DNA of 58,431 nucleotides, the filler included, from Sphacelaria rigidula (lineage: Eukaryota), in NCBI GenBank assembly GCA_964200075.2. It is 9 parts of 9 records of this genome, joined end to end, with 100 filler letters (N's around TTAATTAATTAA, not from the genome) between each part and the next. Parts side by side here need not be neighbours in the genome. Positions count along the whole stretch, not along the records: positions 13,009 to 19,412 come from CAXNAA020020282.1; 8 more parts are not named here. One strand, given 5' to 3'. Position 1 is the first letter of the stretch. Each line of letters starts with the position of its first letter. A model generated the notes under the pieces. The model had not been told where the DNA came from, did not search any database, and saw nothing but the letters and a program-made list of their open reading frames with translations. Position numbers and translations under genes: made by a program. Below, piece by piece: positions 2,390-49,830 of this stretch.

Positions 2390-2825
2390 CTGCAAAGGAT
2401 GAAGGCATTGGCGGACGGCGAAGAGGAAATAAACCGAAGCCGGGTCGAGGCGGGGCGAGATGTGTCATCCCTGATAGCCTCAGCACAGTATCAGCTGCTG
2501 ACTAATTCATAGTGTGAAAAAAACGGCACAAAATCGTCGAGCAGCGCTGGTCGGACGCTTTGTCGACTGCTGAACAATACGCTGTACTCGGCGGAAGCAG
2601 GACCCTCTAGATACGTATTTGGGGCTCACGAACCCGGCATGCGTTTCTTGTTGGACAAAACAAAATCATGGCCTCCAGGAGTTATTTTGTCGATCGTTCG
2701 GTACTATTGCTGACAGGTTGGTGGAGCGTTTGAAGGGAACATTGCGGCCGCACAGACGTTGCCATGACCTTTGCGAAGTACAGTTGCAAGCAAAGCACAC
2801 ACACACGAAACAACACGGCGCTCAC

Positions 2826-4750
2826 ATTTCGGACGATGTCACACTCCATCATTTCCGTGTTCCTACCCCTCTCGTACGACAGCATGAGACAGCTACGTAT
2901 CTGAGGGCTTGCATTCCGCCACACCCCTCCACCGGCAGCACAGTATGCCAGCGCAGCCCATCCCCCAACGCCGCCCGCCGCCGCGTCCGCGCTGTGCTGT
3001 TCTTGCTTCGCGCCATTTTTGCCGGTGGCCCTATGTTCCCCGGTGCTGTGGCTACTATTCCTCGTAGAGGTGCCATGCAGCTGACGGCCGCCGCCGGAGT
3101 CGGCAGAAAATTCAGAGGCAACATGACGCCCCCCCTCGTATTTATCGGCCCATTCGCCGGTTCTACTTGCATGCTTGGAGAGTGGTAGGTCTTCTGCCGC
3201 ATCATATCGTCTTCTACTAGACACGGGTTCCAACCGACCGCTAGTGGTCGTGGTTGTTTTAAACCACCCACCCTCTGCTGATGTCCTGACCCCTGGTGAT
3301 GTATCGCTTGTTCTGTTGCCCCTTTTACTGCTACTGTTATTGTTGTGGGGTTTTGTTGCATCGGGTAGTACATATTGGCTATCGCCGTTGCTTGGCCGGC
3401 TACGATTTCTGCCTTCTGTTCGACCTCGGCCCGACGAGGCGTTGCGGACTGATGAGGAGTGGTCATTGCTCAACGATGAACAACGAAGTGCATCATGAGC
3501 TCCCATTCCTGCACGCTTCCCGCCATTCCCGCGCCCACGACGGTAGGTGTTTGAGGCAGTTGTGCAATCTTGTTTGCCCCGTCGACATATCCCCTCTCGA
3601 CAAAATGCTTCGCCTGACCCCGCTTCCTGTTTCTCTACAGCAGCGGCATTTGACCAGTTCTCGTCTGCATTCCGGCATCGTTGATCGCTGCGGGTCGAGG
3701 TTAGCGCCGAACTGTCGTTACCCAGGAGCGCAGTGCTGCTTGTTCTTCGATCCCCTCGAGCTGTTCGTCCACTACAGTGGACTCTGGAGCGCTTTTTCCT
3801 AACGTTTCGTTCATCTTGTCCCAAACTGCTGTTGCTGCTGCTGCTGTCATCACTAGTGAGGTGACTACTCCTTCCCCTGACTACAACCCTCCTCCTAGCT
3901 CCCCTGCTATAGTAGTCCCCATCGGCCGATCCCCGCGCGCTCCTGCATTCATTATCCCCATTATCATCATTATCATTATCATCATCATCATCACCATCAC
4001 CATCACCGTCCGCGCTGTAATTGTCACCACTATCGTCGTTGTCACCATCGTCGTCATCAGAGACATACACGAAACGAGAAATGCGCGGACTGCTATCATC
4101 CCCACACGAGCCAATAGTGGTCTTGCTAGTACTGGACGACGAAGACACCTTGTCAGACAACTGCGATCCAGGTCTTTCCAGAGTTGTTTCGCTAGCGTGA
4201 TTCACCCAGGCGGCGATGGCGCGCTTTGTCGTGATGTCACCGCCAGCACCGCCGTCGATATCGCCACTACCCGCATCTTCTTCGATCGAATCTTCGAGAT
4301 GGGGGGGAGGGGGACATGTCGCGGATATTTCCGACTCGCACGCTTCAGCCAGCCGGAATGATCGTCGCGACTGTTCTACGATGTTAGCATGCGATTCACG
4401 TCGATTGCATTCCCCGCCGGAATACTCAATGTTACCCGTAACTCTAGTTTTAACACCAATACCACGGTCTTTGCATCCGTGGGTGGTGTTGCCACTCTTC
4501 GTGTTGCGGTTGGCGGTGCTTCTGTGTTCACCCGTATGTCGGTAGATACTGTCGTTGCTTTCTCGGAACTGGTGATCTTCGCTGCTGCTATCGTCGGTGT
4601 CGTTGTTGCTGTTTTGTGTTCTTGATGCTCCCCAGTAACGATGGCTCCTGGAATCATCGCCCTCGACCCGACACTTGTTGTTACTGTTGTAGTTAAACTT
4701 TCTTCTCCTTATGGCGGCACAAGAATCGGCAAAATATTCGCTGCCGCCAC

Positions 4751-4781
<31 letters not shown>

Positions 4782-4919
4782 ACCGCTGCCGTTGCTGCTA
4801 CTGCTGCTACTATTGCTGCTGCTGCTACTTCCGCCTTTTGGGCGATGGCGGACCCTGGTGCGTCCCCACCTCACAACCTTGTTATTGCTATCGCCTTCTC
4901 CCATAACGTTAGGTCTCAT
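2826..4919 (-). CDS. Large exon of the Tubby-like gene: long Ser/Asp/Gly/Arg-rich disordered region ending at the start of the Tub domain
   Basis: Part of the 785-aa ORF 2682..5039. It ends ...SPQIRSCLMLSYERGRNTEMMECDIVRN at a GTGAG donor (phase 0), in frame with exon 2243-2389. The 5' boundary is uncertain; the ATG at 4919 is used. Downstream Tub exons were not found in this contig. Confidence 0.7.
4741..4830. repeat. (GCT)n-type trinucleotide repeat encoding a poly-Ser tract
   Basis: Run of GCT/ACT triplets read as SSSSSNSSSSSSNGSGSSSSSSSSSSGGG in the minus-strand ORF. Confidence 0.9.
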
Positions 4920-4987
4920 CTTGCCGTGCTGCTCTGATGACAGTGGCCTTGATGGCGAATCAACATGGAGCGGAGATGAGGGGTGAA

Positions 4988-5039
4988 GGGTGTACTCATG
5001 ATCATGCATGCCATAGTCATGAGACCATTGACCTCGCAT
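4988..5039 (-). mobile_element. MITE TIR fragment (family of 53361-53756)
   Basis: GGGTGTACTCATGATCATGCATGCCATAGTCATGAGACCATTGACCTCGCAT is nearly identical to the right TIR at about 53657-53708. Confidence 0.85.
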
Positions 5040-5422
5040 ATGTCGGGCGTCGTGAAAACAAGGGGGAGCAACAAGTAAGAACCGATATGGTCGTAGGCCG
5101 ATCTTACTTGTGCGGGAAGGCTAGGCACAACGATGTGCTCTCTTCTTCATATTTCCTCATGTAATGCCATCATGTGCGTGATATCGACCTTGAAATCAGC
5201 GGACAGTTACCACCGTAGTGTTGGCGCGATGCACTTATTTTAGGAGCCGCTCCACGACCAATTGAGTATCGTGCTCAGGGGCGTCGCCACGAGCATCTTC
5301 CATCGTAAGGGACAGAAAGCCCGTTCGTAGATTCCTCTATGTATTATTATTTCCACAAACATGACACACGATCCTGGGAAACCATGCACACAGTGATAAG
5401 TCAAGGTTCAGGACTGACTCAC

Positions 5423-6404: not shown

Positions 6405-6504
6405 NNNNNNNNNNNNNNNNNNNNNNNNNNNNNNNNNNNNNNNNNNNNTTAATTAATTAANNNNNNNNNNNNNNNNNNNNNNNNNNNNNNNNNNNNNNNN
6501 NNNN
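6405..6504. other. Artificial contig linker
   Basis: N44-TTAATTAATTAA-N44 (stops in all six frames). Confidence 0.99.
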
Positions 6505-9090: not shown

Positions 9091-12000
9091 GTGTACGAAA
9101 TCCAACTTCCGTCTACTGCCCCACTCACCATGCAAAACCCCCCGTGCCACGACGGCCCTTCGGAAAACACATTTGCTCCGGAGGATCAATCTCGAGTCTA
9201 TTTTAGTACCATTGCCCAACAACACAAGAGCGATGTGGCTGCAGATCACTTGTCGGAATACGGACCCGACTTGGTGAGTGGAACTGCACTCATGGATGAT
9301 GCCTCCTTCACAACCCGAATAGGTATAGATAGTGGAGTGCATGCAACACGCCCTTTGATGGCCGTTGCCCTGCCCGACACTGGCTCACCACAAACTTTCA
9401 TCACAGCCAGCTGCTGGCAACACATGATGAACGCTGGAGCGGCAGACAAACATTGCCTTTCTACTGTTCCGCCTCGTGTTTTTGGCGGGTTTGGTACCTC
9501 CACTCCCCTTACGGTTGATCAATCAGTACGACTCAGTGTGCAGTTCTTCGATGACACGGGTCCCACTGCACGATTAGCTGTTTGGGCACTCATTGTGCCC
9601 GATGGTTCCATGTCGGTTGATGTTCTCTTAGGACGTGATAGCTGGCTACGTTTTTCCACACATACGTACACGACGAACTCACCTGTTTTGAACCGACCAC
9701 TGACAGGCAGATTAAAATTGGGACATCACGACGCGGATCCAGGGGCTCAGGCCTATGTCGATGACCCAACAAAAACAGGCGATACTTTCCGACTGTATTA
9801 TGTTGGAGACCACGTCGTCTCTCTGTCCCGTGAACCTCAACACATTCATGTGAATCTTGTGAGACGGAACGGATCCCCCGCCCTCACTGGACAGTACTTG
9901 GTCGACTTAACCAATCCCAACCAAACCCCAGACCGTATTCCCCCCCTTTGATCAGACCGATGTATTTGTCCATGAGGGTCGGCAATTCATACCCCTCACG
10001 TCCTCTGTATGTCTCGATGTCCTCCCTGGTCAGTTGTTGGGTTTTGCTCAAGCGCCCCTCCTACGGGCAGCCTTGTTCAATATATGTCTGAAGGTGCCAC
10101 CGCAAACATCATCAGACAGCTCGGAGACCAGCGGTTCCACTTCGTTCGACAAGACTGACCCCATGGTTGTAGACGAATCGACTGATGCGCCTGACACAAA
10201 CCCTCCGACTGCCTTACTAGATACATTCTCGCCAGAGCAACGTGTTAGTTTTCAACGATTATGGGATGAAATTCCCCCCCATTTGAGACACACTGCGTTT
10301 GATTTATCTGGTGAGAGTTGGACACCCACGGTGATTGATCGGTTGCGCTCCATTTTGATACGATACTCTGAACGGTTTTCCCAATCGTCAACAGATTCAG
10401 GCCGCTGCAACACTATACCGTTCAAAATCAACATTCCTGATGGTACGACACCTATCGCCATGCGTCCGTACCGTACAAACCCTCTCCTAGCGGGTAAAAT
10501 TCAAGTAATTCTCGACGAATACTTGTCCGCCGGGTTAATACGGCACTCAACGTCTCCGTGGGCCTCGCCTTTGGTAGTCGTCCGGAAGAAGAAGGGTAAG
10601 ATCCGACTGACCGTCAATTATCAACGATTGAACGCAGTCACCAAAATCGCACGCCTACCTTTTCCCCGGATAGATGAAATCATCGACTCCCTCGGCGGGG
10701 GCAAAGGTTTTTCGAACTTCGGCATGCAGTCCGGTTACCACCAACTGGTGATGGATCCGCACTCTATCGAGCTGACGGCGTTTTTCACCCCGTCAGGTCT
10801 ATATGAGTGGCTGGTCACTCCACAAGGTGCCGCCGGCGCCCCAGGAGCGTTTCAACGTGTGAGGTTTCGCGTCATTGATGGACTGTCCAAATGCCGCATG
10901 TACCTCGACGATGCGGTGGTTCACGGCAGTACACCTGCTGAACACGTCGAACATCTGGCGTCCTTCTTTGCTTGTTTTGAACAACACAATTTGAAGCTCG
11001 CCCCATCCAAATCCCGCATGGGAGCCACGCGCATTGAGTTCCTAGGCCATTGTATCAGCCCTGAAGGTCGTAGCCCCAACCTCGACAAAGTTGCCGCACT
11101 TAGAGAGATTCCCATGCCACGCGATGTCTCTTAACTGCGCTCTTTACTCGGTGATTTGAGTCACTACCGTCAATATCTGCCAAATTTAGCCCAAGCTCTG
11201 AAACCCCTCACCACCCTCCTCAAAAAGGGGGTGAATTTCGTGTTTACGTCGGCAATGAAAAAACTTGTACGAGAGCAGCTCGACACATTGTCAAAGCCAC
11301 CAATTCTGTTTTTTTCAGGCTGGCCAGCTGCTAAAAATGGCTCCCGTCCGTTCCGACTGCACACGGACTCTTCGAAAACTGGGTTTAGCTGCACACTGGA
11401 ACAGGAACAAGATGATGCTAGTGTTCGCCCCATTGTATATCTGAGCCGAACCACCTACCCAAACAAACAGAACTGGTCCGTAATGGAACAAGAAGCAGGT
11501 GCAATTGTTCGGGGAGTGCGACGACTCCGGCAATACTTGCATGACCTCCCGTTTGTGATTTATACAGATGATAAGTCTTTTGGAAAACCTCGCCAAAATG
11601 GCGGAACACAACGCCCGGGTTCAACGCTGGTTTGAAATCCTGTCTTCCTACAGCTTCACGTTGGAGTACCGCACAGGTTCCCAAAACGCAAACGCCGACT
11701 TCCTGTCACGCTTGCCCGTACCAGCTCAACCCATCGACAACTCCGCCTTGGGTCGCATCACAGACCCCACCGAAGACTTTGTATATTTCATAAGCACAAA
11801 TGGTCATCGCGGACTCTAAACACCACTCTCACTGAACCCCAACTCGGCATTGTTTTAAAATAAGCTGACGCCTTCGGCCCACGCTTCTGTACTGGGCAGT
11901 TTGGCCCCACGATTGTTGTGTTCAGTTAGGAGTGAAATTCGTGCAACTATCGGCGGGTATGATCAATTTCGTGCGTCTGGTCATCGGATGGTTTGCACTG

Positions 12001-12908: not shown

Positions 12909-13008
12909 NNNNNNNNNNNNNNNNNNNNNNNNNNNNNNNNNNNNNNNNNNNNTTAATTAATTAANNNNNNNNNNNNNNNNNNNNNNNNNNNNNNNNNNNN
13001 NNNNNNNN
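12909..13008. other. Artificial contig linker
   Basis: N44-TTAATTAATTAA-N44. Confidence 0.99.
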
Positions 13009-13827: not shown

Positions 13828-14176
13828 TTTGTACAAACACGGATTGGTTGCTTTACAAGATTGTCTGATACACTAATTCAAGTATGAAACCTCATGTGCG
13901 CCGTGTCTCGAAACCACGAACGCGTCCAGGCCGACGATCTCTGCTGCAACACCCCAAACATGGGATTGTCCCTTCAGCGTCAACAATACTTCCGACGGAA
14001 CACAGGCTTGTACAGTCAGTTCAAAACAAATAAATCAGGGCTCCACATACCTGGACGCTAGTCTCCATTCTTGTGTTTCAATGGAATCAGGGCGCGGATG
14101 TTTCTCCAGGATCTTCGCCGAGTATCTTGCACAGATGAATCATAACGAGGGGGCGTTTTTCCTTCTAGGGGCGCGG

Positions 14177-14202
14177 GTGGTGTTGAGTAAACACCAGGGA
14201 TT
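14177..14202 (-). promoter_or_regulatory. Histone 3'-UTR stem-loop element (H2B)
   Basis: Minus strand AATCCCTGGTGTTTACTCAACACCAC, identical to the H2A copy. The stem starts about 78 nt after the stop. Confidence 0.8.
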
Positions 14203-14273
14203 GTGTTGTTTGGCAATACTCTCGGTGGAAGGACCGGGCTGCCCGCTGCTCGACTACATCGTGAAAGGACAGA

Positions 14274-14624
14274 CTAGGACGAGGTGAACTTGGTCACAGC
14301 CTTCGTGCCCTCGGACACGGCGTGCTTGGCCAACTCTCCGGGAAGCATCAGACGCACGGCCGTTTGCACCTCGCGAGAGGACAGGGTGGACTTCTTGTTG
14401 TAACGAGTCAGCTTGCCGGACTCCCCCGCCACGCGCTCGAACACGTCGTTGATGAATGAGTTCATGATGGACATGCCGCGCTTGGAGATACCCGTGTCGG
14501 GGTGCACCTGCTTGAGCACCTTGTAGATGTACGACGAGTACGACTCCACCTTCTTGGCCTTCTTCTTCTTGTCTCCGGCCTTCTTGGGGGCCTTAGCAGA
14601 CTTCTTCGACGGTGTCTTGGCCAT
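14274..14624 (-). CDS. H2B: Histone H2B (116 aa, intronless)
   Basis: [11 protein letters not shown]...[42 protein letters not shown]...[25 protein letters not shown]. The likely start is the ATG at 14624, not the upstream start in the ORF track. Confidence 0.98.
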
Positions 14625-14962
14625 CGTGCGAGGTGTCGATCTCTGAGGTAGGGTAAGATGAGATGTGGTTGTGTTGGAGTGGGGCGAGTTGCTCAACGGT
14701 TCCGATTCAAAATTGGTCGTGAAGGAGGCATGTCTGTTTGATATTCCGGTTCATACCTCACGTGTGTGCTTGTGCCCAATCGGCGATGTTAGTAGGATTT
14801 GGGCAGAGGCGTTCTTGGTTTGTTTTCGAATTTTCCGATGACCGATGACTTGATGGATTTCAACTACGGCCACAGGCAGCGAGACAAGGCCACCGCCCCA
14901 ACAGCCTAACATACCACACCTCATCATCCCCACAGGAAAGCAGCAACTGATACCAATCAACC
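14625..14962. promoter_or_regulatory. Putative bidirectional H2B/H2A promoter region with 5' UTRs
   Basis: 338-bp spacer between divergent start codons, containing CCAAT/ATTGG motifs. Function is inferred from geometry. Confidence 0.65.
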
Positions 14963-15340
14963 ATGTCTGGCAAGACAAAGGGCGGACGTGGTGAGGGCAA
15001 GAAGTCTATCACCAGGTCAGCCAAGGCCGGCCTGCAGTTCCCGGTTGGTCGAATTGGCCGTTTCCTGAAGAAGGGCAAGTACGCATCTCGCGTGGGCGCC
15101 GGTGCCCCCGTGTACCTGGCGGCTGTGCTGGAGTACTTAACTGCCGAGGTGCTTGAGCTGGCTGGCAACGCCGCACGCGACAACAAGAAAGCCCGCATCG
15201 TGCCCCGCCACGTCCAGCTTGCTGTGCGCAACGACGAGGAGCTGAACAAGTTGCTCGGGGAGGTGACGATCGCATCCGGCGGTGTGTTGCCCAACATCCA
15301 CGCTGTCCTTCTGCCCAAAAAGGTGGCGAAGAAAGACTGA
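14963..15340 (+). CDS. H2A: Histone H2A, canonical type (125 aa, intronless)
   Basis: [97 protein letters not shown]. There is no C-terminal SQ(E/D) H2A.X motif. Confidence 0.98.
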
Positions 15341-15414
15341 GCGCCCCCGACCTACTTGTGCCCGCGGCTTAACCCAGACACATTGTGTCTGGCGAAAGGC
15401 ACATTCGAAAAACA

Positions 15415-15440
15415 AATCCCTGGTGTTTACTCAACACCAC
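15415..15440 (+). promoter_or_regulatory. Histone 3'-UTR stem-loop element (H2A)
   Basis: AATCCC-TGGTGTT-TACTC-AACACCA-C. The stem starts about 80 nt after the stop and the motif is identical to the H2B copy. Confidence 0.8.
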
Positions 15441-16039
15441 TCGTTTCAAAAAGGTTGGCTGACCTCACGGCATGGGCAGCATACCTGTTGCACAGGTTAC
15501 TAAAATGGCCCGTACTGCGCAGTCGTGCTGACGGTGCATCGTATGATGGACCAGTCCCAAGGCAAATAGCTCATGTTCTCGGGGCGTTTCTGCAGAAGAG
15601 TGGTTTCCATGCGACTGCTTCCGGCGGAGCAGACAGGAGCAAGGGTACGAGAACAGTGACTTGATGTGCCGATACTCCATTTCAGGTGCTCTGCAATACT
15701 CGTCTTGAGCTTATACTCCGCAGGTAGCTCTGAATACTCGGTATATTTGGCGGTCGATATCTCTAGATTCTCTTCGAATTCTGAGCGCGAAAATGATCTG
15801 AAACACTGTTGAGTCACATCGAAGGCCAGAGGGGGCACTTTCAGACAGCTGCTGCAATGGCGGGAGGAGGCTCATGGGAAATTCATCGTAATTTTATTTT
15901 CGTTTCAAGCACACAAAAAGCTTCTCATAATTTTTAATCTCGCCCTCAGCTTGAAAATAAAAAAACTGATTGAGGTCGAAAAAAACAAGTAGAGCCAAAC
16001 TTCATGCGCGCATACAAAGCAAAAGCCTAACCATGTCCC

Positions 16040-16739: not shown

Positions 16740-18160
16740 AGCTTGAGCTAGCTCTTTTTCAGCTTAGCTACCAGTGAGCTTTGAGAGCTACATGAGCTAC
16801 ACATGTTTACCATACGTGAGCTGCCAACCCGTATCTCATCAGCTCAAATTCGTCCTGGGTGAGCTATTGAGAGCTGCATGAGTTACACATGTTTGCCCTG
16901 GATGAGCTATGAGAGCTACATGAGTTACGCATGGTTGCTCCAGATAAGCTTAAGAGCTGCGGGAGCTACGCCGATCTTGGAGTTGTTTCTGTTCCGATGC
17001 TCATCCACGTTGATATTGTACGTACGTGACGATGGTTAGATGTCAACACACCTGTGTTCCCTTTCGAGTAGCGATGGAACTACTTTTTGTAAACATCAAC
17101 ATGGCTACATGAGAAATCATCCGCATCATAGCCACCACATACGCACACACAACGACACACACACAATTCGCCCTGCATGGTGACCGCGGGGGGCAGCAGC
17201 TGTAGCGGCGCTTCAGTAGGAAATGACTGCTTGATCCTCCACGTCCTTTGTATTTCCAAAGCAATCGCGACGTTCGTTGAAGTTCGAGTCGTTGTTAAAT
17301 ATTTCCAGGACTCCTTCTGTCCTTCCTGGCCGCAGTGGCGTTAATATGAAGATCGCTGTGTATCTCCATCCCCACAGTCCGGGTACAGTATGGCGGTACC
17401 CCCCGGCATGAGTAATTTCTCGTTTTTTTCTGCTGCACGAGTATGGGCACGCGTGCATGATGTTTTGCTTCTTTCCTTGCCAAAAGGAGGAAACCTGATT
17501 CACAACAAATCGGTTCGTGTGCGGATTGCCGACTTATTTTCTTTCTATCGCTAAGAGTGAGGCAAAACATCACAACCTAATGATATGTGACGCCATTCTT
17601 TCGAACAAAAACGTTATATCATAAGCGACACCGGGTTGCTCAGCGGCGACCTAGGCACATCACGTGAGTGAGCTACGAGCATGCGTCCCTGGAGTGAGCT
17701 ACTGGGCCTAGCTCATCCATTTATGTTTTCCCCGGGTGAGCTATAAGAGCTGCGTGAGCTACACACGTTTACCCTGGGTGAGCTATCGAGCGTATTCATC
17801 CGCATGTGTTTTTTTCCTGGGTGAGCTATGACAGCTACATGAGTTACACATGTTTGCCCTGGGCGAGCTATGACAGCTATATGAGCTACACATGGTTGCC
17901 ATACGTGAGCTGCCAACCCGTAGCCCAATAAGCTCATATTCGTCCTGGGTGAGCTAAGGGAGCTGTATGAGCTACACATGTTTGTCCTTGTTCGAGCTAC
18001 CAATCTGTAGCTCATCAGCTCATATTTGTCCTGGGTGAGCTATGAGAGCTGCGTGAGCTAAGCATGTTTGCCCTGGAGATACGCTTATCAGCTTAAATTC
18101 TCCCTGGGTGAGCTATGAGAGCTGCATGAGCTACGCATGTTTTTCCTGAGCGAGCTACCA
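16740..18160 (+). repeat. Degenerate minisatellite of about 42-bp GAGCTA-rich units, in two blocks (about 16740-16985 and 17660-18160)
   Basis: Repeated consensus GGGTGAGCTATGAGAGCTGCATGAGCTACACATGTTTGCCCT. Confidence 0.85.
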
Positions 18161-18994
18161 AATCTTGCTTTTTTTTTCTCTCGCACTTTGAACTCCTCCC
18201 CTTCCTCGGGATGAGTCCGTGGTCTCAAGGGATCAACCCATCTCTTCCCCGGTATGCGCCTTACATTTTGGTCTCGCAGATTGGGTCAGCACTCCCTCAC
18301 CGCGTCAACTCACGTCGGACAAACTCAGTCGACTACTTTTGTTTGCTCACGTTCTCACGCTTCCCACGGTGGAAATTAGAAACTATGAAGATAAAACCCA
18401 ACGTGCTTTCGCGTGCCACCGATCATCCAAGTGAGCGTTTCATCCCGAAGTTTGGGGATCGGGAGATACTACTAGGCATCCGCTCCACATTCCAAAATAA
18501 GAATCGTCAGACCCACTTCTATGACAACAAATCTCGATTTATTTGCGACCCCGGTTTTGACAAAATCGGGGGGACTCAAATCTGTGAACTCAAAATCGGG
18601 GTGACCGTTTTACGGTATAGACAACAGTACAGTTATCACAGAGTTTTGAAACGGTTCTGTACACAGACGGTCATTTTCTGCACGCGTGAGGCACTGCGTA
18701 CTCGTGCACAAGGGGCCTTACAGACTGGAATAAGTCATTCACCGCCCCCGATTCCCGAAAACCTCATTCTGGGCGACGGGCTGGGGAGGGGGGGGGCTAG
18801 GGTACCCCATTTTGGATGGGTAGGCACCCCCTTGATCAGATGGATAATGACGATCGCAGGTACTGTACTATGAAGCACGTGCATGAACGGCTTTTCCTGG
18901 CTTGTGCCAGACTTATGTACAAGCTGCGCATGCTATGGCTGCACGGCAGGTGTTAAGGGTACGTCGAGCCTTGGCTAAGCAACGTCTGTATTTG

Positions 18995-19412: not shown

Positions 19413-19512
19413 NNNNNNNNNNNNNNNNNNNNNNNNNNNNNNNNNNNNNNNNNNNNTTAATTAATTAANNNNNNNNNNNNNNNNNNNNNNNNNNNNNNNN
19501 NNNNNNNNNNNN
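19413..19512. other. Artificial contig linker
   Basis: N44-TTAATTAATTAA-N44. Confidence 0.99.
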
Positions 19513-20519: not shown

Positions 20520-22505
20520 GACAATAGACGGCATCTATTGCAATAACAATAGAACCTGCTGCAGTAGATGCTAATACTGTCGTCCGTAATGGCCATCGAT
20601 AGACCAGTTTCCCACATTCTTGTCTGGGCAGCAGTCTGCTGTGGCCCTACGCCGAAAACTATTGCGGCCGACCACATGCATCGGTCGATAGCTTTCCATA
20701 TCCATTGATGACCACAATGGCTATCGATAGACCGCGTGCCAAATCTATTGATGACGACGATGGCTATTGACAGATTGCAAACCAAACCTATTGATGACGG
20801 CAATAGCTACTGATAGATTACGAATAAATCTATGCATGGCGGCAATGAGTATCGATAGACACATACCAGAATCTACTGTGGTATACAATGCCTACCGGTA
20901 GATCTTCTCCGTCGTCTATTGCCACATCTACATCGCAATATTCTACGTACAGAGTATATTATACTCCGTTAAGGTACGGTCGAGAAGCCGAAGGTGGACA
21001 TGCAGTAGGTATTTCATGATGCTACTTGTGAATGTATGACATCGCGTTTCTACGATTTTGAAACGCTTGCATTTTGTAGGAATCCGCAATATGTGTGGAC
21101 AAGAGTTTACAACTTTCGTTGTTGGTGAGGTGTTGGTACTTATGATTATCCAGCTGATGGACACGAACGCTTATTATAGTACTTTTGTGTGTGGGTGAGA
21201 TGTGCTTATACCCTGGACAATAGACTACGTAATAGAACATTGGCGTTGCAATAGCCCCGGAAATTTGACCGCCAATGTCCATTGAGTCATCCTACGATAG
21301 GGGGGGGGGTATTTTGGGCCATTTGTTGCTCGAAATTTCCAGTCAGATCGTCGTTGAAAGCAGTTACGGTTGTTCGAACAAGCTTTTTGTGGATTAATAA
21401 TGCTCATCCATACTGCCTGAAACCGTTTGGAACCAAATACAAGCGCAGCGCAAGTCTGGAAGGATGTCTGATACACTTAAGAGCCTATTTTTCGTGCAAC
21501 CAAATACCCCCCCCCCAATCGTAGGATGACTCCAATGTCAGTCATAATCGACTGGCATGAATGTCTATCGATAGCTATTGCAGGCGACAAAGGACTCGGG
21601 ACACGGGATAGAATGCATCATCGCCGTGACAATGGAGGGGCCAAGTTGTCTATCGATATATTTATTCTGTTGCAATAGGCTCTGGATTGTGGACACCAAT
21701 ATATGTTGCTAATCACAATAGGATCTGCCACGCGGCCATCAATACATATTGTTGCTTACAATAGGATATCAATTGCGCCCAGCAATGTCTACCGCTGGTC
21801 ACAATGCCGTCTGAATCGCGGTCACCAATATCTATTGCTGACTACAAAAGTAGCTGAATGGCGTCGAATACTAGCTCTATGTATGCACATATTTCGATGT
21901 ATGTCTCCACCTCATGCAACAGAAGCTATGGCCAGCTATCGCCTCAGGTCGTTGCGTGTTCTTGTGTGAGGGGTATTGCCGTTGATGTCATAAGACCACT
22001 GCAGTGAACAATGTACTTTTCATAACCTATCATTAGTGTCACTGGCTATCGATAGGTGCTCCCGAGAATAATCGATTGCTGACGGCGATGCCCATTTTGA
22101 TAGATACCGAAAAATTGATTGTTGGCGGCAGAGGCTACCGATAGATAGCTCGACAAATCTATTGATGACGGTAACAGGTATTGATAGATGGATCACCTAA
22201 TCCATTGACGACGGCAATGACTATCAATGACTGGCTCACCAAACCTGATGATAACAGCAATGACTATCGATGGATGGCTCACCAAACGTTTTGATGACGG
22301 CAATGGCTATCGATATATACATCCCAGAATCTATTGCGGTACACGATGTCCATCGATGGCGAGTGATCCTCATCTATTGTAATTGCCATAGGCTATCGAT
22401 CGACTATTGCAACATCTATTGTCCCTTGCAATGCATATCAATATTTGTTTCTCACCATCTAACGTTTTCGATAGTATATATTGATAGATTTTCCCCGTGT
22501 CTATT
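20520..22505 (+). repeat. Degenerate ATCGAT/CTATTG-rich repeat region with units of about 40 bp, in two related blocks
   Basis: Units resemble GACGGCAATGGCTATCGATAGA..AAATCTATTGAT. Segment 20840-20925 aligns with 22297-22390. Confidence 0.7.
21284..21532. mobile_element. 249-bp MITE with GAG...CTC termini (Sola-like)
   Basis: TIR GAGTCATCCTACGATAGGGGGGGG / CCCCCCCCAATCGTAGGATGACTC. Flanks CATT/CAAT give a TSD with one mismatch. Confidence 0.88.
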
Positions 22506-24461: not shown

Positions 24462-25535
24462 CTACGCGCTGGTCCAGCGGCAACAAGCAACTTGGACCTC
24501 CGCCCACCAGTACTTGCTCATTGGCCTATGTAGGCCCCGCCCTCTCAACATCGCCAACAGCAGCGCAGTATCACTCATACTCGCTACAGCCGCCACCTCC
24601 TGCCCAGCTTGCTCTTTGGCGGCAATAGCGGCAACGCCTCTAGCGCTCTCGTGCCTGTCCCCTTCGACTAGCGATGGCTGTGTGACTTGTTCGCCTCTTC
24701 CAACAGCTCTGCCAGGGGCTGCTATTTCAGCACCGACTACTGTTCTCTCACTGTTCTTGCTGCCCAGTGCGTCTCTTCGGACAGACACATGCGTCGTCAC
24801 CTTCTCTGCACCGCGTTGTTGCTTCAGTCGCGGGCGAGCTGTTTCTACTACTGCACGCTCAGCAGTTGCACTATCGTACCTGTCCCCTCGAGAAGATACA
24901 TGCTTCTCAGCTTTCACAGTGCAAGCATCTGCCCTGTATCGTTGTTTCAGACGCGGACCACCTACTGCACGTTCGGCGTGTGCACGGTCGTGCCTGTCTC
25001 CTCGGGCAGACACATGTTTTTCGGCTTCCACAGTGCAAGCAGCTGCCCTGAATCGTTGTTTCAAACGTGTACCACCTGCTGCACGTTCGGCAGGCTCACG
25101 GTCGTGCCTGTCCCCTCTGATAGACACATGCTTCTCGCCCTTGACAGTGTATGCGAGAGCGCTCTCATTCCTGTCCCGTCTGACAGATACGTGCTGTGTG
25201 ACAAGTGCGCGCTTCACAGTGCGATACACCCCACCGGGCGACGCATACTTGCGCAACGCGAAAAGCAGCTGCTCGCTCTCAACATCATGAGCATGTTTCA
25301 AGAACATGTCACACAGACATTTCGCAATATGTTTCGGCATGAGGTCAGAAACTTCTGCCACCTCAGAGAGGTTTGTCCACCGTGCGTTCACCTGATCTAC
25401 ATCTCGCACATATTGCTCGTATTTTCGAAAAAACTCGGCCGATTTTTCGCTCGAAAAACTGCGGCCATAGTACGGCACCTCTAGCGCCAGTACAGGAACA
25501 ATACGACCATCGACGATGACATATTCCTGCGCCAC
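24462..25535 (-). mobile_element. Gag-like ORF of an LTR retroelement, with an internal 38-aa tandem repeat
   Basis: 357-aa ORF just downstream of a PBS-like TGGTGGCTCGGCGC (25589-25602, minus) and LTR-like sequence running to the contig end. A possible protease remnant (TLIDTG) lies at about 23463-23480. No RT was seen. Confidence 0.55.
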
Positions 25536-29681: not shown

Positions 29682-30288
29682 GTACCCCGGTGGCTCAGTT
29701 GGTGACCTCGACACCTTTTACTGGTCTGGTCGTGGGTTCAAATTTCGAAGCGATCTTGGATTTTTTCTCACACTGCCCAACAACAGTACAGTGTAGAGCG
29801 ACTATGTCGTGGATAAACAAAATTCGACTCGAAAGGAGAGGGACTATGTCGTGGATAAACAAAATTCGACTCGAAAGGAGAGGGACTATGTCGTGGATAA
29901 ACAAAATTCGACTCGAAAGGAGAGCGACTATGTCGTGGGTACATGAGATTTTACTTGGTGGTCGACGAGGGAGAGAAATTACTGGATCCCTCTTGCGACA
30001 AAAAGAAAAGGCGACAGACGTCGAAGGAAGGAAACTGCTAGACCCCTCTCGCGATAAATAAAAAGGGCAACCACCGCACAAGGAAGGTGGCGAATGAGAA
30101 GAAACAAGAAAGAAAAAACTCCTCCTGTGATGGCCTTTCTCTTGTGTGACCCCGGCTTGTACGCCCACATATTACATACCGGAAGGTGGATATATAATTT
30201 TTGCATCGTTCCTGTTGCGCCCAAATATACGGAAAGGTGTAGACCGGCGTCCAGAATAGATGGGACGACAGCAGACACACAACACACA
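29682..30288 (+). mobile_element. tRNA-derived SINE with an internal 42-bp tandem triplication
   Basis: A box TGGCTCAGTTGG (29691-29702), B box GGTTCAAATTT (29735-29745), body homologous to 29052-29396, and an ACACACAACACACA tail. Confidence 0.85.
29795..29938 (+). repeat. 42-bp tandem repeat, about 3.4 copies
   Basis: AGAG(C/G)GACTATGTCGTGGATAAACAAAATTCGACTCGAAAGG at 29795, 29837 and 29879, partial at 29921. Confidence 0.95.
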
Positions 30289-47899: not shown

Positions 47900-49830
47900 G
47901 ACCGAGTTAGACGGCATTATGCACTGTTTCCCCCCAAAGCACTACCTGTTTGTTTTAATGGACGCTAACGCAAGGAATGGACTACGAATAGGCGAGGAGG
48001 AACGTAAAGTTGTAGAAGTACACGGCCGAGACTCCCGATCCAACGACAGTAACGGCATATCTCTAATACAATTTGCAGGCGACAACAGGCTTTCCCTGGT
48101 CAATACCTTAGTTTCCACCCCTAAGGAGAACACCTCGCGTACGTTCAACGGTGTTGCGAATCGCCCCGCGGACAGAAAACGCATTGACTACATTATCACA
48201 CGGCGAGATCACCGCAGGTTCGTTCTTAGTGTCACCGTCCACCTTCAACCCACCAACTCGCCGGACTCTGTCCAGAACATGGTGTGCGCCTCAGTACCGC
48301 TCCTTCGTCACTTCGCACACAACAGACCTAGACGAATCCCAATTGGGCGTACACCGATCGACAGACGGCCAATAGTATCTGATCCCGTCAAAAGTGAGCA
48401 GCTCACCAAGCTCATCATCAGCGAGCTCGAACAGAGTATATCTGGTGATACAGTTAGTTCACTGGCTACGAACTCTGCCGACGTACTCTCGAGTGCCGCT
48501 GAAAAAGTGGTACCCCATCTGACCCGAAAGCCACGTATACCGGGGTGGTTCGAGGATGCTGACATCAGAACGGAATCCGAACTTTCCTGGATGGAGAGAG
48601 AAGGGGCGAGATCAACGGTGAAACTGGGGTAATCTCTAGATAAACTCGCATGGTGAACATTGCGAGCAGCATGAAAAAGATCAAAAAGGTTATCCAAGTT
48701 GGGGTTGACAAATATATAGATGTGTATGCTGGAGAACTAGAGAAGTATACTCGAGCGGGGGACATGAGAGGGTGCTACAGACATCTCAACGGAGGGTGGA
48801 AACTGTCTGGACGACGAATCGAGAGTAAACAGTGCGTTCGAGATGAGGACGGCAACTTACTGCGGGACAGAGGGTTGATCAGTGGGAGATGAGGACGGTA
48901 CTGTTCTACATTGCTGAACGCCATATCGGCAACTATCGACCGCACCATCATCGAGAAGATTGCTCAACGACCAACAGCGTTGTCACTAGGAGACCCATCA
49001 AGCCCAAGTGTGAGCCCAAGTGAACTGAGGAGGTCCTGAGAACTATGTCGAATGGCAAAGCAACGGGTCCGGATGGTATTCCTGCTGAAATCCTGAAGCT
49101 TGGACTAAGCGGGAAGGCGTCGGACATTACGTACCACTCCCACGACGTCGTCTCTGCGGTTTGGACATCTGGCGAGGTGCCGCAAGAATGGAAATATGTC
49201 GCCATCAAAGTGCTACACAAAGAACGAGATACGACCCAGTGTAGTAACTACAGAGGCATCTCACTTGTGGCACGTACTACTAAAGTTCTCTTCAAAATCG
49301 TAGCCAACAGGCTCAGTGATATTTGTGAGGAAACAGGTGTCTTCCTGGAAGAGCAGTGTGGATTTTGGCGCCAAAAATCGACCATAGACGTGATGCTTGT
49401 AGTACGCCGACTCCAGGAGTTGGGACGGGAAAGCAACATCCCAATGAGCATGCGTTTTCTCGATCTGCAGAAAGCCTCCGATTCTGTAGACCGCACGCTC
49501 CTGTGGGAAGTGCTTGCTCGGTTCGGAGTCCCGTCGCGAATAATCGTGATCATCCGTATGTTTGACGACGGCATGCGAGCTCGAGTGTAGCTACATAGTG
49601 GCGAGCTATCAGGGTGGTTCGACGTCTGTCAGGGACTCAGACAAGGTTGCGCTTCGTCTCCGCCGCTGTTCAACATCTTCGGAGCAGGCTTGGTGGAAGT
49701 GATCGTCCAGCGGTTTGCGGCGGACCCAGTCATCGTCTCAGACTTGGTCTTTCTAGACGACGCGCCACAAGGTTTCGATGGTGAATCCGTGGGAAAGACA
49801 CTACCAGAAAAGGTGCGATGTGCGTAACGG
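47900..49830 (+). mobile_element. Degenerate RTE-type non-LTR retrotransposon (APE endonuclease and RT), truncated at both ends
   Basis: Endonuclease motifs LMDANAR, LSLVNT, KRIDYIITR. RT motifs GKATGPDGIPAEILK, NYRGISL, EEQCGF, FLDLQKASDSVDR, GLRQGC.SSP.LFNIF. In-frame stops are present and no YADD region is reached. Confidence 0.92.

Follow-up and report, generated by a model that had tools for sequence, protein, structure and literature searches.

The stretch of DNA analysed here (hereafter, the window; 58,431 bases from the brown alga Sphacelaria rigidula) contains one pair of histone genes, H2B and H2A, which are divergently transcribed, intact, and intronless (Table 1). The window holds no further histone gene, with H3, H4, and H1 all missing there. 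The H2B protein is present letter-for-letter in protein collections, where its 90% cluster includes named proteins from brown algae (Ascophyllum, Ectocarpus, Scytosiphon, and Hapterophycus) and from Phaeothamnion and no named ones from elsewhere, and the representative of the 90% cluster of the H2A protein is named from Sphacelaria. In a language-model protein atlas, the nearest H2B cluster is assigned to Bacillariophyta. We assign the window to a brown alga or to a closely related sister lineage among the ochrophyte stramenopiles. The H2A query against viral contigs matched 12 giant-virus loci with 32–57% identity, which is uninformative.

Table 1 Features of the H2B/H2A locus and retroelement-derived ORFs in the window (positions count along the whole window).
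Feature	Position	Strand	Description
Retroelement ORFs	9911-11632	plus	Pfam RVT_1 (8.7e-23), then RT_RNaseH (1.9e-22)
Purine run AGAAGGAAAAA	14156..14166	minus	11 nt past the H2B hairpin; candidate HDE-like site
26-nt shared element behind H2B, AATCCCTGGTGTTTACTCAACACCAC	14177..14202	minus	Hairpin 14196-14178
Histone H2B gene	14274..14624	minus	Uninterrupted ORF, 116 aa + stop; Pfam PF00125, E 3.5e-18
Intergenic region	14625..14962		338 bp between divergent start codons; presumed bidirectional promoter
Histone H2A gene	14963..15340	plus	Uninterrupted ORF, 125 aa + stop; Pfam PF16211 (2.1e-19) and PF00125
26-nt shared element behind H2A, AATCCCTGGTGTTTACTCAACACCAC	15415..15440	plus	Hairpin 15421-15439, stem UGGUGUU/AACACCA, loop UACUC
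Purine run AAAAAGG	15448..15454	plus	8 nt past the H2A hairpin; candidate HDE-like site
RVT_1 fragment	49024-49587	plus	Pfam (4.5e-09)

Rousselot et al. 2025 (PMC12459048), in the portions of the article used here, describe brown seaweeds as being without a classical replication-coupled H2A, and H2A.E as a set of multi-copy, mostly intronless H2A genes that lie in tandem with H2B within histone clusters. The H2A of the window fits an H2A.E-like type, as judged from its N-I-H docking domain, the absence of an SQ[D/E]Y tail, its H2B partner, and its lack of introns; this assignment follows the features given in the text of PMC12459048.

Elsewhere, the window has few genes and many repeats. Excluding ORFs over the H2A/H2B locus, Pfam matches were found in three of the 88 ORFs of at least 110 aa, and an 812-aa ORF (2685-5120, minus strand) had no Pfam match. 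Minisatellite arrays from several families, with periods of 42–43 nt, occupy 16776-18186, 20661-20852, 22075-22395, 29753-29955, and 24848-25189, together with a tandem repeat of 114 nt, the three copies of which lie within overlapping long ORFs. No tRNA was found in the window. Paired runs of 44 N, 12 bases apart, recur every ~6504 bases (6405-6504, 12909-13008, 19413-19512, etc.), and there is a single run of 10 N at 1784-1793 (714 N in total in the window). These N runs resemble traces of masking or scaffolding rather than anything biological.

The two histone genes share a 26-nt element in their 3′ flanks. The sequence-only reading had reported an identical 26-mer behind both genes, and this was reproduced exactly: two copies were found in the 58,431 bases, one behind each gene and each sense-oriented relative to its own gene, and there was no third copy in the window even when up to three mismatches were allowed. 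None of 100 dinucleotide shuffles contained two matches to the 26-mer (mean 0.00). A repeat search lengthened the shared pair to 29 nt at 97% identity. Beyond the element, the two flanks are as unrelated as had been claimed, since ungapped matches anchored on the 26-mer (20/75 upstream, 24/100 downstream) are at the random level. A protein query with the spurious ORF that spans the 3′ flank of H2A, aimed at the flanks of relatives, had no match. The distance from the stop codon had been put at about 78–80 nt for both genes; it is 80 nt for H2A, whereas for H2B the first paired base is slightly nearer (77 nt). An element in sense orientation soon after the stop codon lies behind both histone genes of the window (2/2, H2A and H2B only).

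The element is thus a sharply bounded island of identity within two unrelated flanks. Because neither flank is a duplicate of the other, such an island implies selection on every position, including the loop and the 5′ flank, and the extension of identity over the loop and six bases of the 5′ flank is a pattern typical of a site that is read by a protein, like the animal stem-loop. The two copies are identical (n = 2), and therefore provide no covariation. We considered whether the element could be a functionless trace, left either by gene conversion over a short tract or by the insertion of a small palindromic mobile sequence behind both genes. The presence of only two copies and the richness of the window in repeats and retroelements are in keeping with such an origin. 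However, 58 kb contained no additional copy even at three mismatches, no target-site duplication was seen at the ends of the arms, the matched spacing after the stop codon and the common sense orientation would have to be coincidental, and gene conversion between non-homologous flanks requires a pre-existing shared element. We therefore assign this explanation a very low probability. The element was also considered as the terminal inverted repeats of a transposon that carries the gene pair, and this candidate was rejected (no target-site duplication; each arm is itself palindromic).

A 20-mer of the hairpin was compared with other sequence collections. Two matches were found in metagenome contigs, inside bacterial coding genes, one for an acyltransferase (PF01553) and the other for a YwiC-like protein (PF14256), two in prokaryote genome contigs, within long ORFs of Gallionellaceae MAGs, and none in viral contigs. 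The matches in bacterial contigs are due to chance (about one is expected in 596 billion bases) and are uninformative about the alga. In the PF01553 gene of Gallionellaceae-type genomes, this 20-mer, which is the core of the hairpin, lies by chance inside the coding sequence, and its reverse complement encodes part of a conserved stretch, which we take to be the region around the HX4D motif.

The shared element had been proposed to fold as UGGUGUU/AACACCA around the loop UACUC, and structure prediction bears this out. In 51-nt contexts, the MFE and centroid structures are both this hairpin (7 bp, 5-nt loop, −7.4 kcal/mol), and it is retained in the folds of both 130-nt flank contexts. The anatomy described in the sequence-only reading likewise holds, including the GG start, the U-A closing pair, the AC-rich 3′ flank, the 5-nt loop, and the intronless state of the genes. 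The second stem pair is G-C in the 6-bp and the 7-bp register alike, U occupies positions 1 and 4 of the loop, and C occupies position 3. The bases that follow the 6-bp core stem are ACCCG behind H2B and ACUCG behind H2A. The folding energy is unremarkable when compared to shuffled sequences (z = −0.87, with 37/200 shuffles folding as well; z = −1.92, with 8/200); the element stands out from chance by its exact identity, its position, and its orientation, and not by its folding energy.

Two further inverted structures occur at the locus. A second perfect hairpin (CCAGACA/CATTG/TGTCTGG; 15374-15392, plus strand), which can be drawn with 7 bp or with 8 bp and a 3-nt loop and which persists in the 130-nt fold, lies 33 nt past the stop codon in the H2A flank, and no counterpart was found in the H2B flank. 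A 14-nt inverted repeat (86%) that includes TTCGAA connects the shared promoter region (14823-14836) with a position just before the H2A element (15398-15411); this is probably due to chance.

A structure of this kind might also act as DNA. The sequence TGGTGTT-N5-AACACCA is a perfect DNA palindrome, and its two copies form an inverted repeat of 29 nt placed symmetrically on either side of the gene pair, so they could be a site for a dimeric factor, with a role as an enhancer downstream of the genes, as a boundary or terminator, or in the replication-coupled regulation of the pair. Because the copies are identical, covariation cannot separate an RNA from a DNA reading. The conserved block, however, is asymmetric (a 6-nt 5′ flank, AATCCC, and an asymmetric loop), and its orientation is constant relative to transcription, which is not needed for a symmetric DNA site. 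To our knowledge, the DNA sites that regulate histone genes are found in promoters and not in 3′ flanks, and the location of the element also differs in this respect. Taken together, a DNA-level site seems improbable to us.

The sequence-only reading had likened the element to the metazoan histone 3′ stem-loop and had suggested scoring it with the corresponding Rfam covariance model (Histone3, RF00032). This part of the comparison failed, with neither copy being matched by the model. At the gathering threshold, Rfam gave no match anywhere in the window, and at E ≤ 10 RF00032 was not found in 14100-15520; searches with 51 nt around each copy (E ≤ 10) returned no RF00032 either, although unrelated matches of 6.9–12.3 bits appeared. 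The shared hairpin differs from a 6-bp stem with a 4-nt loop in having 7 bp (a 6-bp GG core plus U-A) and a loop of 5 nt, and the odd number of bases between the arms makes a 4-nt loop impossible. Given the 5-nt loop, the 7-pair stem, and the C at loop position 3, the element cannot be filed under RF00032. The interpretation given in the sequence-only reading is supported in part: a shared hairpin with an SLBP-like mode of working is the best reading, and a hairpin of the SLBP type itself is unsupported.

A feature-by-feature comparison was made with the metazoan RF00032/SLBP/HDE/U7 signal, the consensus of which was taken partly from the text of a preprint (Zhao, Bond and Ni Leathlobhair 2026; 10.64898/2026.10.14.759114) and partly from general knowledge. 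Both signals lie, in sense orientation, in 3′ flanks of cluster-type histone genes that lack introns, have a GG start, a G-C second pair, a U-A closing pair, and U as the first loop base, and are followed by a C-rich 3′ flank beginning with AC and by a purine-rich run ~10 nt downstream. In both cases the sequence is invariant across different histone classes (here, H2A and H2B). The Sphacelaria element differs in its 7-bp stem (6-bp core plus U-A), in its 5-nt loop UACUC with C at position 3, in a purine at the fourth stem position, and in the UCCCU that separates the A-rich 5′ flank from the stem. The distance of 77–80 nt from stop to stem may be a further difference.

According to the text of the same preprint (10.64898/2026.10.14.759114), a G-C second pair and a U at the third loop position are conserved among histone stem-loops, and the latter is termed diagnostic; the hairpin described here has the former, and C in place of the latter. 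The non-animal scan in that study used solely a 6-base stem/4-base loop/6-base stem pattern with one mismatch tolerated, unlike the 7-bp/5-nt hairpin found here, and its stramenopile stem-loops were reported to be further from the stop codon and less conserved. Its script missed 36 of 44,646 Rfam stem-loops, including some with 3- or 5-nt loops, which implies that such loops are real but rare. We applied the 6-4-6 rule to the 300 nt past each stop codon in the window: the shared hairpin was missed, and unrelated weak hairpins were selected instead (at +136, +195, and +276 behind H2A; at +68 and +185 behind H2B). If the brown-algal element is general, this rule could contribute to the greater downstream distance and the lower conservation that were reported for stramenopile stem-loops. 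The same preprint reports that LSM10 and LSM11, which are Sm-like proteins specific to U7, are present in stramenopiles, e.g., in Ectocarpus. In the literature seen, neither a histone hairpin nor an SLBP was described from brown algae or diatoms beyond this survey, as represented by its main text, which makes no statement that an SLBP is present in stramenopiles.

Two other non-animal systems provide points of comparison. The 3′ palindromes of Chlamydomonas and Volvox belong to divergent algal gene pairs, like the pair described here, and the mRNAs of those genes end in stem-loops (PMC13525598, as far as its text was available). In Physarum polycephalum, stem-loops lie behind canonical histone genes and also behind some variants, and most histone mRNAs have a poly(A) signal in addition to the stem-loop (PMC8600027). 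Among the table rows seen from that study, the stem-loops are located 30–51 nt from the stop codon, and SLBP and LSm10/11 are present. The stem-loops of Physarum belong to the 6-bp/4-nt type, and AAUAAA or AAUGAA often comes after them, whereas the hairpin in Sphacelaria has a 5-nt loop and neither signal within 400 nt.

Downstream of the hairpins, the first purine run of at least 7 nt begins at +108 after the stop codon in both flanks (Table 1). Based on the density of such runs in the window (626 runs on both strands), the chance of finding one is 0.104 per 20-nt span and ~0.011 for both flanks, a value that was calculated post hoc. Rfam snRNA models had no match in the whole window. A search for poly(A) signals (AATAAA, ATTAAA, AATGAA, TGTAA, AAGAAA, AATAAT, TATAAA, and AGTAAA) found none within 400 nt downstream of H2A or H2B, and the earliest variants of this type, TGTAA at +417 and AATGAA at +510, are both behind H2B; the motifs sought are AATAAA-type variants, which may not be the signals used by this lineage.

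These observations bear on a further alternative, in which the histone mRNAs are polyadenylated and the element is a regulatory 3′-UTR hairpin that acts on stability, translation, or the cell cycle and does not define the 3′ end, comparable to Physarum. The identity, position, and orientation of the element fit this explanation equally well, the distance of 77–80 nt and the failure of RF00032 would suit a non-canonical role, histone mRNAs of Physarum do join a stem-loop to a poly(A) signal (PMC8600027, in the part of the study considered here), and certain H2A.E genes do appear in RNA-seq data, e.g., in sperm. In contrast, there is no AATAAA-type hexamer within 400 nt (bearing in mind that the signals of this lineage may differ), and a purine run just past the stem in both flanks is better suited to a cleavage module. 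On balance, we regard a hairpin in polyadenylated mRNAs as unlikely.

TruSeq mRNA kits select poly(A)+ RNA. In the Phaeoexplorer project, libraries were prepared with the TruSeq Stranded mRNA kit or with the NEBNext Ultra II Directional kit, according to the portion of 10.1101/2024.02.19.579948 consulted, and most of the RNA-seq data in PMC12459048 were taken from that project. In the passages of PMC12459048 that deal with expression, the H2A.E genes that lack introns, occur in multiple copies, and are paired with H2B are mostly 'not expressed' in RNA-seq, with some detected, e.g., in sperm, whereas the intron-bearing variants are expressed ubiquitously. Histone mRNAs that are not polyadenylated would produce this apparent silence of H2A.E, which is a lead and not proof, and it could equally be explained by multi-mapping among near-identical copies or by low proliferation.

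We propose that the element is probably a lineage-specific variant of the known histone 3′ stem-loop signal, for which the support consists of two copies. More specifically, we favour a lineage-specific hairpin at the 3′ end of histone pre-mRNAs that is SLBP/U7-like in action and differs in loop size and in a key loop base, and we rate the chances of this explanation as about even. Under this model, the 26-nt element would be a histone-gene-specific cis signal in the 3′ flanks of the divergent, intronless H2B/H2A.E-like pair. It would most likely be transcribed into pre-mRNA, where it is predicted to fold as the 7-bp hairpin with a 5-nt loop, and the hairpin would be read sequence-specifically by a protein, for which an SLBP-family RNA-binding domain with an altered loop preference is the leading candidate. 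The purine run 8–11 nt downstream may be HDE-like and could serve as a pairing site for a U7-type snRNP. Together, the hairpin and the purine run would direct cleavage a few nucleotides past the stem, and the expected product is a histone mRNA with the hairpin at its end, presumably without poly(A), and with a level that would be coupled to DNA replication.

The favoured 3′-end hairpin draws on the 26/26 identity, the matched positions (77 and 80 nt), the sense orientation, the MFE/centroid hairpin, and the features shared with the canonical stem-loop, as well as on the purine runs, the absence of AATAAA-type hexamers nearby, the reported presence of LSM10 and LSM11 in Ectocarpus, and the apparent RNA-seq silence of H2A.E. 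Counting against it are the existence of two copies only, the lack of a match to RF00032, the 5-nt loop, the C at loop position 3, and the UCCCU spacer, in addition to the unexceptional folding energy, the post hoc nature of the purine-run statistic, and the distance of 77–80 nt from the stop, as stem-loops further downstream are reported to be less conserved in sequence in the available text of the preprint (10.64898/2026.10.14.759114). A broader version of this model can be put forward tentatively, and we consider it rather doubtful: in brown algae and their sister lineages, cluster-type histone mRNAs (H2A.E, H2B, and probably H3.1, H4, and H1) would end in a lineage-specific 7-bp/5-nt hairpin without poly(A), with ends that are made by an LSM10/LSM11 U7-like snRNP and a co-evolved SLBP of altered loop recognition.

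If this broader version is true, the stem-loop pathway would extend to a third lineage with complex multicellularity, and its form there would escape RF00032 and 6-bp/4-nt scans. The 'not expressed' state of most H2A.E genes in mRNA-seq would be accounted for as well, and the reported sperm-specific H2A.E signal might mean a switch to polyadenylation rather than one in transcription. If the hairpin marks histone mRNAs that lack poly(A), surveys that use RF00032 or scan only for 6-bp/4-nt hairpins would undercount or misplace stramenopile stem-loops. An SLBP/U7-type pathway with a different loop size would then exist in brown algae and would offer a natural experiment on loop recognition by SLBP. 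Poly(A) selection of libraries would also have biased the published expression profiles of brown-algal histone genes. The identity of the replication-coupled H2A in brown algae would then become testable using total RNA.
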